A stretch of 64,000 nt of DNA. It comes from Candidatus Hodarchaeota archaeon (GTDB lineage Archaea; Asgardarchaeota; Lokiarchaeia; Sigyniarchaeales; SOKP01). The notes beneath the pieces are model-generated. The model did not search any database. It worked only from the letters and a program-made list of their open reading frames with translations, and had not been told where the DNA came from. Of the stretch, positions 24,652 to 28,967 are shown piece after piece. Position 1 is the stretch's first letter, and each line of letters opens with the position of its first letter. Both the position numbers and the translations under genes were made by a program. The DNA is taken from positions 50,486-114,485 of the forward strand of contig JBHLKM010000004.1 in the NCBI GenBank assembly GCA_048886685.1, given 5' to 3'.

Positions 24652-25659
24652 CTATAATATATATTTCTTTAAGAACTCATTATTTTCTATTTCGGAAAAA
24701 ATCTCTTTACTAAGATCTTGATAGTCTTTCCCATATATTACTTTACCTTTAGATTCCTCCAAGTCGGAATATCTCAATGTAAGTGATGCTGCAAATTTTA
24801 AAGATTCTTCATTAATTTCGTCTTGAATAATAGTTATTGGACCAGGAATATCTGGAACCTCCATTATTAAATCACTTGGTTTCTTAAGTTGAAGTAGCAT
24901 GTTATTTTCAATTTCATTCCTGCCTACGATAATTTTAACTTTATTAAATCGAAAATGTCTGCCATACTTTAATATATCTATATCTTCTAACTTTAAAGTA
25001 TTATTAAATTCTAAAGAATCCCTCATTCGGTTTGAAAAATTAATGTCTGTTAATAAACATCCACCACATGCAAAATAATCCTCCAATAATCCGTGATCTC
25101 TGGCTAATTCTAACTGTATTTTTCTACTCCTCCCCTTTATTCCCAATAATTTTGTTCTATCTATTAATCCTTTTTCTTCATATATCGTTGGTGTTAACTG
25201 AAGGGCAGATAAAGGTCTTAAAAGTTTCCCCTCCAGTCCAGATTCCTTTTCCACAATCCTAAGTGCTTTCATATGTTGAGACTTTGGTCGTTGATTTAGA
25301 ACTTCACCAGTAAATATAAAATCTGCTTTTATTTTCTTCAAATATTCTTTAGCTTTTTTTAAAATATAAATTCGACAATCTACGCAAGGATTTAAGTTTC
25401 TTCCATAACCAAATTTAGGACTTCGGATAATATCTAAAAAATCATCACCTAACGACAAAGTATGTACTTTTATTCCTAGTTTTTCACGAAAGTTATCAAA
25501 GTTTGATTCATATTGACAAAATGGAGATTTAAAGTTCAGTCCGATTACTTCGATTCCTTGTTGTTTTATTAATAAACATGCCGTTAGACTATCTAATCCC
25601 CCCGAGACTAACCCAAGTCCGACTAAATTATCTTTTTTCCTAATTTCAATATCCTCCAT
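24652..25659 (-). CDS. ThiI/MnmA-like PP-loop tRNA sulfurtransferase
   Basis: SGGLDS PP-loop, NPCVDC, TGEVLNQRP.SQ, GGCLL, VGRN C-terminal domain. Confidence 0.82.
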   Translation of the reverse strand: MEDIEIRKKDNLVGLGLVSGGLDSLTACLLIKQQGIEVIGLNFKSPFCQYESNFDNFREKLGIKVHTLSLGDDFLDIIRSPKFGYGRNLNPCVDCRIYILKKAKEYLKKIKADFIFTGEVLNQRPKSQHMKALRIVEKESGLEGKLLRPLSALQLTPTIYEEKGLIDRTKLLGIKGRSRKIQLELARDHGLLEDYFACGGCLLTDINFSNRMRDSLEFNNTLKLEDIDILKYGRHFRFNKVKIIVGRNEIENNMLLQLKKPSDLIMEVPDIPGPITIIQDEINEESLKFAASLTLRYSDLEESKGKVIYGKDYQDLSKEIFSEIENNEFLKKYIL

Positions 25660-25671
25660 CTTTACATGTCT

Positions 25672-25926
25672 CTAAATTTTTTTAATTAAAAGAATCCATA
25701 TTTTTTTCTCATTATCTACTTCTTTAATATTCATTAATTCCCCAATATTTTGTTGTTTACAATTATCAGGAACATTTTTTACAGCAGCTGGAAAATCTAA
25801 TGTTAATTCTAAAAATTCACCAGGATTCATTTTTTCTAGTGCTAATTTAGTATAGACAAATGTCATTGGGCATACTTTTCCTCGTATATCTAATTTATGG
25901 ATTTTATTATTATTCAAAACAAGCAT
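25672..25926 (-). CDS. tusA: TusA/SirA family sulfur carrier
   Basis: LDIRGKVCPMT motif; size. Confidence 0.85.
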   Translation of the reverse strand: MLVLNNNKIHKLDIRGKVCPMTFVYTKLALEKMNPGEFLELTLDFPAAVKNVPDNCKQQNIGELMNIKEVDNEKKIWILLIKKI

Positions 25927-26728
25927 CTCCTATCTTATATTCATGTGTTTCAACAAGATCAATGGCATTATCTCCACATGCTAAGCAAGCTTCATTTCTA
26001 GCAAGTTTAATAAAGTTAAATCTATATTTTAATAAATCTAAAAATAACATTCTGTTAATAATCAAATCTCCTATTCCTAAAATATATTTAATTGCTTCAT
26101 TCGCCTGGATACATCCAACAATCCCAGGAATTAAACCAATTATACCTGCTTGAGAACAGGACATGGATGGTTCATTTTCTGTTATATCTCCAAAAATACA
26201 TCTGTAACATGCTGTTTCTTCATCAGGTATGATTGTCATAATTTGACCATTAAATCGTACGACTCCTGCTATTGTAAAGGGAATTCCAAGATTAATACAT
26301 GCGTCATTGATTAGCATCTTTGTTGGAATATTATCTGTTCCATCTATGACAAAATCAGAACCTTTTAAAAGTTCTTTGATATTCTCAGGTAATAGAACTT
26401 CATTCTTTGTTTCTATTTTGACATCAGGATTTAATTTATGTAATTTCTCAAACGCGCTTTCAGTTTTTAATTTATTTACATCTTCAGTAGAATGGAGGAT
26501 TTGTCTATGTAAATTTGATATATCAACATTATCAAAATCTATAAGTTTTATAGTTCCTACTCCCGCCGCAGTTAAATAATAAGCAACTGGAGAACCAAGA
26601 CCTCCACATCCAATAATAGTAACTTTTGAATTCAATAATTTTCTTTGTCCAACTCCTCCAATTTCCTTTAAAACAATTTGTCGAGAATACCTTTCTATTT
26701 GTTCGTTAGTAAAATCCATAAAAATCAA
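25910..26728 (-). CDS. MoeB/ThiF/UbaA E1-like activating enzyme
   Basis: RYSRQI, GCGGLG, SNLHRQ, CYRC/CLAC Zn site, SCSQAG catalytic Cys. Confidence 0.93.
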   Translation of the reverse strand: MIFMDFTNEQIERYSRQIVLKEIGGVGQRKLLNSKVTIIGCGGLGSPVAYYLTAAGVGTIKLIDFDNVDISNLHRQILHSTEDVNKLKTESAFEKLHKLNPDVKIETKNEVLLPENIKELLKGSDFVIDGTDNIPTKMLINDACINLGIPFTIAGVVRFNGQIMTIIPDEETACYRCIFGDITENEPSMSCSQAGIIGLIPGIVGCIQANEAIKYILGIGDLIINRMLFLDLLKYRFNFIKLARNEACLACGDNAIDLVETHEYKIGDACFE

Positions 26729-26920
26729 GTTTTGATCCTAATTTTTTAAAATTGCTAAAAATTAGTATAACAGTTAAAAGATTATTATTCTATAACACAA
26801 AAAATTTTGAACCATTTATTTTTTATCTTAATTTTTTATAACTGTATTCTATAAGATATTAAGGCAAAACTTAAATTAAGTTTATGAATAACCTATTAAA
26901 ATCAATAGAGAGTTGATTAA

Positions 26921-27286
26921 ATGGGAAAGGTTTCAAAAGTTTTATTGCTATTAAAAGATATGATATATGAATCAACAAGTCCATTAGAAATAATTCGATT
27001 TGCTAAATATTATAAAAATAAAGGACTTGATGTGACTATTGTCCTTTGGGGACCAATGGGAATTATCCTTGGAAAAAAGAATAAAATTGGGAGAATGCAA
27101 TATGATGATGAAATATTGGAATGCCTGAACATAGGGATAAATTTCAAGTGTTGTGATCTTGCTGCTAACCTTATTGGTTTAGATAAATCTGAATTGATTG
27201 AAGGTATTGAATTAGTCGAATCATATGTAGTTGCTGATTTATTATTACAATATCAAGAAGAAGGACAATTGATTTTCTCACTATAA
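26921..27286 (+). CDS. DsrE/TusD-like protein
   Basis: Size and DsrE-like layout with FKCCDLA; sulfur-relay context. Confidence 0.7.
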   Translation: MGKVSKVLLLLKDMIYESTSPLEIIRFAKYYKNKGLDVTIVLWGPMGIILGKKNKIGRMQYDDEILECLNIGINFKCCDLAANLIGLDKSELIEGIELVESYVVADLLLQYQEEGQLIFSL

Positions 27287-27316
27287 AAGAAGTTAGAAAT
27301 AATTCAAAGATCCTTA

Positions 27317-28192
27317 TTAATAATGATCCACTTCTGGATGTACTTCATTAACAAATTCAAAATTAAAAATCTTCTCACGCGTAAGCTTTTCTTTAATGTA
27401 GCCTAATCTGTGCATAGTATTGATAAATCCTTCTGTTGATTTTAAATATCCTTCTGAAAGAGCTATGCAATATTTAGGAGAGATTTCAAGTACAGCTTTT
27501 ACATATTGCTTTTGGTTATTGAGAATTGTAAAAGTTCTTGATATCGTCTCTGCTGCTTTATCTTGAGATTCTCTGAGCAAAAAAGAGGCTTTCTTATGAT
27601 GTTTAAGGAATATAATCACCAATTCGGGATAATCCTCTATTAAAGATTCATGGAAAAAAATGCCGTAGCTAGGATTATTTGCTAATAAATAATGTGCTGG
27701 AATTACTAAATGAGAATTTAAAATCGTTCTTGCAAAAACTGCTAACGCAGGAGTTCCTACACCTCCTTCTAATATACCCCTTTTCATATCAATTGCTATG
27801 AATTCAGCTTGTTTGTAATTTTTTACTTTGATATCATTTTTTAAATTGTGTTTTTCTAAATAGTAGTTGAGGATTGCGTCATGTATAGAGCCAATACTTG
27901 GAGTTCCTATAGAAACTCCTTTAAATTGGAGGAGAGTTTCATAGATACTGTCATCTAAATGTGATATAGGTTTATGGTTTGGTTTACCAATCATAATTGT
28001 TCCCTCTACATGACCCCCAGCGACACACTTGATAGGAACTGAATTGTCTATTCCTATTATCGCAGGGGGTAATCCCATATAACCTATATCCAATTCACCT
28101 TTTTTAAAAGCTTCTACCATAAGGGGTCCCGTGCCGAATAGAAACCATTTAACCTTAATTTTCAAGTCTCTTTCCAGCTTATCATCTCCCAT
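27317..28192 (-). CDS. ABC transporter substrate-binding protein, NMT1/SsuA-like (true start probably about 28252-28255)
   Basis: FGTGP, DIGYMGLPPAI, GGHVEGT, GSIHD. Frame stays open upstream through IGHLSTAYHT. Confidence 0.8.
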   Translation of the reverse strand: MGDDKLERDLKIKVKWFLFGTGPLMVEAFKKGELDIGYMGLPPAIIGIDNSVPIKCVAGGHVEGTIMIGKPNHKPISHLDDSIYETLLQFKGVSIGTPSIGSIHDAILNYYLEKHNLKNDIKVKNYKQAEFIAIDMKRGILEGGVGTPALAVFARTILNSHLVIPAHYLLANNPSYGIFFHESLIEDYPELVIIFLKHHKKASFLLRESQDKAAETISRTFTILNNQKQYVKAVLEISPKYCIALSEGYLKSTEGFINTMHRLGYIKEKLTREKIFNFEFVNEVHPEVDHY

Positions 28193-28391
28193 TAAAATAA
28201 AATTTGTATGATATGCCGTTGAAAGATGACCAATCCTTAATTCTTTTTTTATGATAAAATTCCCTTATTTTAATTATTTAAAATTATCAACAATGCTATT
28301 CCCATTTAATAATTATAATCTAAAATATTAAGTTATTTAATTGCATTTATGAAAATATATAAGTTAAAATCTCAATTTAAACTGTTAACTT

Positions 28392-28679
28392 TTGCTTAAT
28401 GTAAAAATAATATTTTTATCTGTTTTGGTTGACATTACTGAAATCGAGGAATTAACTCTTCCTATAGATGATGGATCGAATATAAGAAATATATTGAAAC
28501 AGCTAACTTCAAAATTTGGGAAGAAATTTGAAGAAATGATTTTTATAGCTTCAGAAGATTTAAGTAAATATGTAATAATTACAATCAATGGAAAAGACAT
28601 TCGTACTTTAGATGGGCTTAACACAAAAATACAGCCAAATGATGAAATTTCTTTTATACCAGCTATCGCAGGAGGATAG
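28392..28679 (+). CDS. MoaD/ThiS/SAMP ubiquitin-like sulfur carrier
   Basis: Beta-grasp size, INGKDI..LDGLNT, C-terminal PAIAGG. Confidence 0.9.
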   Translation: MLNVKIIFLSVLVDITEIEELTLPIDDGSNIRNILKQLTSKFGKKFEEMIFIASEDLSKYVIITINGKDIRTLDGLNTKIQPNDEISFIPAIAGG

Positions 28680-28744: not shown

Positions 28745-28754
28745 AATTTAAAAA
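28745..28754 (+). promoter_or_regulatory. candidate TATA box of the tRNA-Cys gene
   Basis: TTTAAA preceded by an A-run, about 20 nt upstream of tRNA position 1; weak evidence in an AT-rich context. Confidence 0.35.
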
Positions 28755-28769
28755 CTCAAACTTAATTAA

Positions 28770-28851
28770 GCCAGCGTATCCGAGTAGTTAAGGAGGCGGC
28801 CTGCAGAGCCGTTGCTTTTCAGCATCGTGGGTGCAAATCCCACCGCTGGCT
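28770..28851 (+). tRNA. tRNA-Cys(GCA) with long (type II) variable arm
   Basis: Acceptor GCCAGCG/CGCTGGC + U73; D arm TCC..GGA; anticodon stem GCGGC/GCCGT with loop CT-GCA-GA (28803-28805); variable arm TGCT-TTTC-AGCA-TC; T arm GTGGG-TGCAAAT-CCCAC; CCA not encoded. Confidence 0.92.
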
Positions 28852-28967
28852 CTTATATCTTCATTTCAAGACCAATAAACCTTGAATTCATAACTATAAA
28901 TATTGGTCTACGGATCTCTTTTATTGTTCTTATTATATACTTAATTAAAAAAAAGAAAAAATAAAGA

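Follow-up and report, generated by a model that had tools for sequence, protein, structure and literature searches.

Background

Whether a tRNA belongs to class I or class II is regarded as settled by its amino-acid family, and SerRS uses the long variable arm as a main handle on its substrate. In eukaryotes, the V-arm-containing tRNAs of Hamashima et al. 2016 are reportedly class I isoacceptors with an acquired class II-type arm; they are said to occur as extra copies beside the normal genes, and to be charged according to the arm.

Class II tRNAs are those with a variable region of at least 10 nt, listed as the tRNAs for Ser, Leu, Tyr and Sec (PMC7609411). Cysteine identity rests on the anticodon GCA and the discriminator U73, which are its major determinants (PMC9976931). 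Long-armed cysteine tRNAs of bacteria are known as selC* tRNA-Cys; their branch is 8/4, and they work with dedicated partners (PMC5389517; PMC7609411). Published surveys of Asgard SepRS systems say nothing of a long arm on tRNA-Cys (PMC5424206, PMC8762117).

The tRNA-Cys gene described here, from a Loki-type Asgard archaeon, represents a new structural variant; its role is probably the ordinary one. It lies in a 64,000-nt stretch of DNA that is called the window below.

The tRNA-Cys gene and its fold

The window's one tRNA is a tRNA-Cys(gca) on the + strand, placed by ARAGORN at 28770-28852. Rfam RF00005 matches 28770-28851 over model positions 1-71 with 55.1 bits, above the gathering score of 29, and places ten of the bases in an insertion within the variable region; score and ARAGORN call agree in assigning the gene to the tRNA family. 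It spans 82 nt to the discriminator U73 (28770-28851), and CCA is not encoded. An A/T-rich, TATA-like box on the same strand (28747-28754), 16-23 nt upstream of the mature 5' end, is a possible archaeal promoter.

The acceptor stem consists of seven base pairs between 28770-28776 and 28844-28850, as seen in the sequence, the Rfam match and the minimum-free-energy fold; it begins with G1-C72, and its 3' strand together with U73 (28851) fills 28844-28851. The D-arm (28779-28794), delimited from the sequence, the Rfam match and relatives that combine a G-G loop with a U55 T-loop, has three base pairs, a G13/A22 mismatch and an 8-nt loop, AGUAGUUA, with A at 28786 in the usual place of G18 and G at 28787 (G19). 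The anticodon arm (28796-28812; sequence, ARAGORN and Rfam) has a 5-bp stem and the loop C-U-GCA-G-A, with GCA at 28803-28805 and G37 at 28806. The T-arm (28827-28843; sequence and Rfam) likewise has a 5-bp stem, and its loop UGCAAAU carries G at position 55 (28833). The variable region (28813-28826) is 14 nt long: 28813-28816 pair with 28821-28824 across a 4-nt loop, followed by U and C48, as judged from the minimum-free-energy fold and from covariation in 18 arms.

The minimum-free-energy fold of this tRNA is a cloverleaf plus the 4-bp variable hairpin with its 4-nt loop (-32.7 kcal/mol); the single-sequence z-score of -1.85 is weak alone. With 14 nt and a 4-bp stem-loop, the variable region falls into the class II size range of at least 10 nt, and equals in length those of tRNA-Ser(GCU) and tRNA-Leu(UAG) of the same genome, which also measure 14 nt. 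The cysteine identity elements GCA, U73, G1-C72 and G37 are all read directly from the sequence. The first-pass annotation of this DNA had described a 7/5 cloverleaf with these elements and the T-loop UGCAAAU, and every one of these features is confirmed. Its remark that the D-loop lacks the GG pair holds for G18, which is changed, and not for G19: since the loop reads A-G and only G18 is altered, the partner of C56 is kept.

The only tRNA-Cys found in the genome

The genome that contains the window (G000) measures 4.42 Mb in 47 contigs, with 30.9% G+C. Marker genes put its completeness at 100% and its contamination at 8.4%. Introns occur in many of its tRNA genes. Four approaches, namely ARAGORN with and without introns, a genome-wide Rfam search, blastn-short with six other types of tRNA-Cys taken from relatives, and a scan for a GCA anticodon stem-loop plus T-arm, found no second tRNA-Cys in this 100%-complete-by-markers genome, and the gene is single by all of them. 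One T-arm look-alike (C1:17828-17848) was rejected as a second tRNA-Cys: it belongs to a tRNA that contains an intron, has A as its discriminator and shows a normal T-loop. Two odd ARAGORN calls, at G000 C1:21205-21297 and C7:6016-6116, are maybe artefacts of unrecognised introns: the one is a 93-nt tRNA with the four-base anticodon tcca (Rfam 52.6 bits), and the other, obtained with the intron search on, a weak candidate with anticodon CUA (Rfam 30.8 bits).

A tRNA-Sec is also encoded (G000 C1:221073-221165). It has a 9/4 branch, a UCA anticodon and a long D-stem, none of which is found in the tRNA-Cys. SepSecS (482.8 bits) lies about 200 bp from tRNA-Sec on the same strand (G000 C1:219573-221165), and a PSTK-like gene (C12:99278-100030) scores 136 bits, below the model cut-off. 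The Sec-using setting noted in the first-pass annotation is thus real as far as tRNA-Sec and SepSecS go; nothing was found that ties Sec to the arm.

Charging enzymes and gene neighbourhood

A full-length CysRS is encoded on contig 12 (G000 C12:84245-85681; TIGR00435, 511.9 bits against a cut-off of 340), with the PF01406 catalytic and the DALR_2 anticodon-binding domains. Profile searches of the same genome found neither component of the indirect SepRS-SepCysS pathway: the best match to the SepRS model TIGR00470, with 70 bits against a cut-off of 380.65, is PheRS alpha, and the best match to the SepCysS model TIGR02539 reaches 26 bits against 365.25. Because SepRS and SepCysS are absent and CysRS is present, the proposal that this tRNA is open to tRNA-dependent cysteine synthesis fails in the window genome. 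Gene content indicates that Cys-tRNA is most likely made directly by the class I enzyme CysRS.

The CysRS proteins of most of the window's genus are 77-100% identical within their group and about 40-45% identical to those of other genera (loci L120-L149), and this divergent form looks like an old paralogue or a replacement. The other type, found in the remaining genera of the order, adjoins tRNA-Cys, which in most other genera lies within about 50-150 bp of cysS. Both types occur together in G013 and G018, and the single-contig genomes G041 and G037, from another family, have two CysRS copies each. A link between the arm and the type of CysRS was considered and rejected, since the arm is seen with both types.

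Upstream of the tRNA-Cys, window positions 24652-28679 encode a PP-loop ATPase (ThiI/tRNA methyltransferase-like) with NFACT-R_2, TusA, a ThiF-type E1, DsrE-like and NMT1-like proteins, and a ThiS/Urm1-like protein whose frame ends in Gly-Gly. The cluster resembles a system for tRNA thiolation built on a ubiquitin-like sulfur carrier. The tRNA-Cys does directly follow this sulfur-relay cluster in the window, as had been pointed out; this position is common only to three close relatives, and for that reason a functional link between the two was rejected.

Conservation and covariation of the variable hairpin

The order (Promethearchaeota/Lokiarchaeia, with Sigynarchaeum among its members) was sampled by 152 species genomes; a blastn survey found tRNA-Cys in 112 of them, and about 110 loci were fetched and parsed. 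Among the genes so found (about 19 genomes of the window's genus gave no blastn match to the window tRNA-Cys, and the counts cover found genes only), the variable region is a long arm in 54 genomes, a 5-nt loop in 53, and an insert of 29-30 nt at the same place in 3. In all 54 long-armed genomes the region is organised alike: U44 is followed by a 3-4 bp stem with a loop of 3-4 nt and then by two bases, the second of which is C48, and this gives a variable region of 12-14 nt.

There are 18 distinct arm sequences, and in their alignment (A1) the cells of the four arm pairs contain standard pairs throughout. C-G, U-A and G-C occur at the third pair, U-A and C-G at the fourth, while the first two vary to wobble only; double compensatory changes are present in two of the four pairs, at a frequency like that of the T-stem used as a control. 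The covariation score was reached by 0 of 500 shuffles. When the arm partners are slid by 1-3 columns, pairing drops to 38-72% of cells, compared to 100% in the hairpin register. Several of the loops are GNRA tetraloops. The tRNA-Cys as a whole shows 90-99% identity among many species, and its stems contain compensatory changes. It is this covariation among relatives, with 18 paired arms and the shuffles, and not the weak single-sequence z-score, that makes the hairpin more than a chance fold. The comparison of sequences is evidence that selection maintains the pairing of the arm, not its sequence. The first-pass reading of the gene as an atypical tRNA-Cys whose arm is of type II is therefore borne out: the 14-nt region and its 4-bp hairpin are there, and the pairing is kept in relatives.

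It had also been suggested that such a tRNA might be of Ser/Leu-like ancestry. Leaving the hairpin aside, the gene is collinear with the short-loop tRNA-Cys of sister species and differs from it very little, and because of this collinearity the suggestion has to be dropped. The sister genomes G111 and G139 are the clearest case: both genes have the same D-loop intron, and they differ by the hairpin alone.

The elbow contact 18:55

All 26 of the 29 other Rfam tRNA matches in the window genome that have a readable T-arm carry the T-loop U54-U55-C56, and the other tRNAs inspected have a G-G D-loop, so that A18:G55 occurs in tRNA-Cys only. In the tRNA-Cys genes of relatives, D-loop and T-loop states go together: G55 genes have an A-G D-loop, two genera have U55 with G-G, and a third type has U55 with C-G. 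By these matched states, contact 18:55 covaries, from G:U to A:G, with the G19-C56 pair kept. Natural changes of this near-universal tertiary contact are rare, and with the A18:G55 elbow the usual site of pseudouridine 55 is lost. We found no description of such an elbow in the literature outside subscription journals.

The third type just mentioned is a second kind of tRNA-Cys within the window's genus (loci L018, L019 and L020, of genomes G014, G012 and G006, respectively); besides its U55 T-loop and C-G D-loop, it carries the 29-30 nt insert at the site of the hairpin.

Splice motifs and introns

Introns in the tRNA-Cys genes of relatives are 12-34 nt long, A/T-rich and variable in sequence, and are located near 9/10, in the D-loop, at 33/34 and 37/38, in the T-loop, and, in G006 and G014, at 45/46. 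We searched for splice motifs with a purpose-written BHB scanner, which correctly picks up the introns at 37/38 in L015 and L021 as well as the one at 45/46 in L020. The motif was defined by a 4-bp central helix, 3-nt bulges and at least one outer helix (hBHBh', HBh' or hBH), with the stems of the product intact. In G006 and G014, the 29-30 nt insert has an HBh' motif, which makes it an intron at 45/46 and leaves a normal 5-nt loop.

The hairpin has no such signature of an archaeal BHB intron. In a scan of seven variants, no consistent BHB or relaxed motif excises it with the anticodon and T stems intact; the lone alternative with 4 bp pairs in a shifted register, at the cost of the anticodon stem, and is lost in the other variants. 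Its excision would correspond to an intron of only 8-10 nt, under the smallest found in these genes, and the 5-nt loops of short-loop relatives are not the exact product of such an excision. On the sequence evidence, the hairpin is most likely retained in the mature tRNA, as the absence of a splice motif indirectly supports.

Distribution and evolutionary history

A search for the combined pattern of arm and T-loop, which misses genes interrupted by an intron anywhere from the anticodon loop to the T-loop, matched 47 of 398 Asgard genomes, all in the window's order. This includes 44 of 132 genomes in the window's family and 2 of 4 in the Sigynarchaeum-type family; there were no matches in 246 genomes elsewhere in the phylum, and none for a reversed-pattern control. 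The arm state was scored for 98 genomes of a quick single-gene RpoA1 tree of 111, on which it changes at least 10 times; most of the genomes are MAGs, and some arm states are possibly due to mis-binned contigs. Such a number of flips is an intron-like pattern, and is not expected of a fixed structural element. The window genome belongs to a well-supported clade of 28, most of whose scored members are long-armed.

Of the 152 genomes of the order, 48 have SepRS, most of them together with the short loop. In raw counts on the tree, the arm is strongly associated with a lack of SepRS: 45 genomes have a long arm and no SepRS, 34 a short loop and SepRS, 15 a short loop and no SepRS, and 4 a long arm and SepRS. 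The independent-pairs test gives 8 pairs, of which about 2.3 go in the same direction, about 1.7 in the opposite one and about 4 show no difference (p about 1). As arm and full SepRS also co-occur in some genomes, we claim no link between the arm and the absence of SepRS; it was rejected for want of support from the independent pairs and on four counter-examples.

Fragments of SepRS are found in G083 (C13:4-870) and G032 (C1:2045293-2045841 and 3332223-3333287), with in-frame stops or cut by a contig end; both genomes carry a long-arm tRNA-Cys, and the fragments may be decaying, or reflect contamination or recoding. Near-identical long-arm tRNA-Cys genes with an A27/C43 mismatch occur in two different genera (L052 in G074 and L053 in G050), in both cases on short contigs with cysS and in genomes with SepRS; gene transfer or mis-binning may explain them.

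A structural variant with a probably ordinary role

The reading that we prefer, and hold to be quite probable, is that this gene is the single working tRNA-Cys of the genome, charged directly by CysRS, and that its arm is retained as a lineage-specific expansion, next to the A:G elbow. The body of the tRNA and its identity set (GCA, U73, G1-C72, G37) would be those of an ordinary archaeal tRNA-Cys, recognized by the CysRS of contig 12. A hairpin of 3-4 bp with a 3-4 nt loop, placed after U44 and before the last two or three bases of the variable loop, would stay in the mature molecule and give it a class II-type arm as long as those of the organism's tRNA-Ser and tRNA-Leu. Class I synthetases leave the variable side of the tRNA facing the solvent, and CysRS could therefore tolerate such an arm, which is probably no more than a structural brace for the tRNA core or a near-neutral extension of it. 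The arm would have been gained or lost repeatedly within one Asgard order, and the elbow contact 18:55 would have changed separately from G:U to A:G, with G19-C56 kept.

Several other readings have to be weighed against this one. If the hairpin were a mini-intron or another processed insert, the mature tRNA-Cys would be an ordinary class I molecule, and much about the lineage makes this worth considering: the genomes are very intron-rich, relatives have tRNA-Cys introns at many sites, including the hairpin's own 45/46 (G006 and G014), introns go down to about 12 nt in these genes, and the hairpin is patchy among close relatives, with its ten or more state changes. We nevertheless find this distinctly improbable, for no BHB, HBh' or hBH motif yields a product with intact anticodon and T stems, the only 4-bp alternative register is lost in other variants, slid partners pair in just 38-72% of cells where the hairpin register pairs in all, the 8-10 nt to be removed would be fewer than in any intron seen here, the 5-nt loops of short-loop relatives are not a precise excision product, and the hairpin loops include stable GNRA tetraloops. 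A related reading, that the hairpin is a former 45/46 intron whose splice motif has been lost and which is now part of the mature tRNA, draws on the true HBh' intron at the same site in sister genomes, on the ten or more changes and on the intron-rich lineage; we consider it unlikely. If true, it would mean that a class I tRNA has repeatedly moved to class II and back, a living model for the origin of long arms.

The remaining readings give the arm a part in charging, or deny the gene a function. The arm could be a determinant tied to the route of Cys-tRNA synthesis, having arisen or been tolerated after the loss of SepRS, or acting as an antideterminant against it. The raw counts of 45 and 34 invite this thought, as do the window's 28-genome clade without SepRS beside its short-loop sister clade with SepRS, the class II nature of SepRS, which faces the variable side of the tRNA, and the finding that SepRS and CysRS of Methanosarcina mazei prefer tRNA-Cys molecules that differ in the core, with A47 reported as a SepRS element (PMC9976931). 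The chances of this reading are nonetheless slim, given 2.3 against 1.7 of 8 independent pairs, the joint presence of full SepRS and the arm in the Sigynarchaeum-type genomes G026 and G028 and also in G050 and G074, and the Lokiarchaeum- and Prometheoarchaeum-type genomes, which have no SepRS and yet a short loop. Charging by SerRS, leading to a Ser-tRNA-Cys intermediate or to programmed Ser/Cys (or Sec) ambiguity, is very unlikely. The arm does match the tRNA-Ser of the genome in length and layout, a PSTK-like gene and SepSecS are present, SerRS reads the long arm and the discriminator, and bacterial U73 allo-tRNAs were considered possible SerRS substrates (PMC7609411; PMC5389517). Here, however, the discriminator is U73 and not G73, SepCysS is absent, a canonical CysRS is present, and the tRNA has neither the 9/4 shape nor the long D-stem of the genome's tRNA-Sec, features that PSTK is expected to read; moreover, because it is the sole decoder of Cys codons, uncorrected serylation would damage the whole proteome. 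Finally, one could take the unusual A18:G55 elbow, the G13/A22 mismatch and the odd arm as signs of a decaying, non-functional tRNA-like copy. We give this hardly any credence: the gene is the sole tRNA-Cys of a genome complete by markers, its 90-99% identity across many species comes with compensatory stem changes, and all its identity elements are intact.

Neither the arm nor the elbow gives any sign of a changed genetic code. Under the preferred reading of a CysRS-charged tRNA with a retained arm, a sole, essential tRNA-Cys with an arm of class II size, present or absent between sister species, is a natural test bed for what CysRS and SepRS need of the tRNA-Cys core, for how SerRS avoids a look-alike, and for the origin of variable arms.

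Comparison with known systems

A tRNA-Cys(GCA) with a 7/5 branch and a long arm also occurs in bacteria: among the matches listed by a whole-collection pattern scan, which are mostly chance bacterial matches with few true hits and do not serve for counts, at least three come from Candidatus Sericytochromatia MAGs (L261, L322 and L359) and have a normal elbow, and others stand in dense tRNA arrays of a Burkholderiales MAG (L324) and a Clostridia MAG (L376), the latter with G55 in the T-loop and an A-G D-loop. The bacterial form is not described in a survey of cyanobacterial tRNAs (PMC6933170), and in the literature outside subscription journals our searches turned up no account of any long-armed tRNA-Cys with a 7/5 branch.

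Compared to the canonical archaeal tRNA-Cys(GCA), a class I substrate of CysRS (and SepRS), the window tRNA-Cys shares the 7/5 branch, GCA, U73, G1-C72 and G37, and differs in two points: the variable region of the long-armed form measures 12-14 nt and contains a 3-4 bp stem, against 4-5 nt in the canonical form, and contact 18:55 is A:G instead of G:U. To our knowledge, presence and absence of the arm among close relatives is not seen in tRNAs for Ser or Leu. Like BHB introns at non-canonical sites in archaea, the hairpin is a short insert at 44-46, patchy in an intron-rich lineage; unlike them, it has no bulges and no exon-intron helix, and its pairing is internal and kept by covariation. 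With class II tRNAs (Ser, Leu, bacterial Tyr and Sec) it shares a variable region of at least 10 nt with a stem-loop (PMC7609411), while its anticodon and discriminator are those of Cys, and its body has no sequence kinship with tRNA-Ser or tRNA-Leu. The combination of a long variable arm and GCA/U73 is likewise seen in the selC* tRNA-Cys and allo-tRNAs of bacteria (Mukai et al. 2017, PMC5389517; PMC7609411); these have 8/4 or 9/3 branches, long anticodon stems and dedicated SelB*/CysRS* partners, whereas the window tRNA-Cys is archaeal and has a 7/5 branch, not 8/4 or 9/3. It differs from the V-arm tRNAs of eukaryotes in that the gene bearing the arm is the only tRNA-Cys that the organism has.
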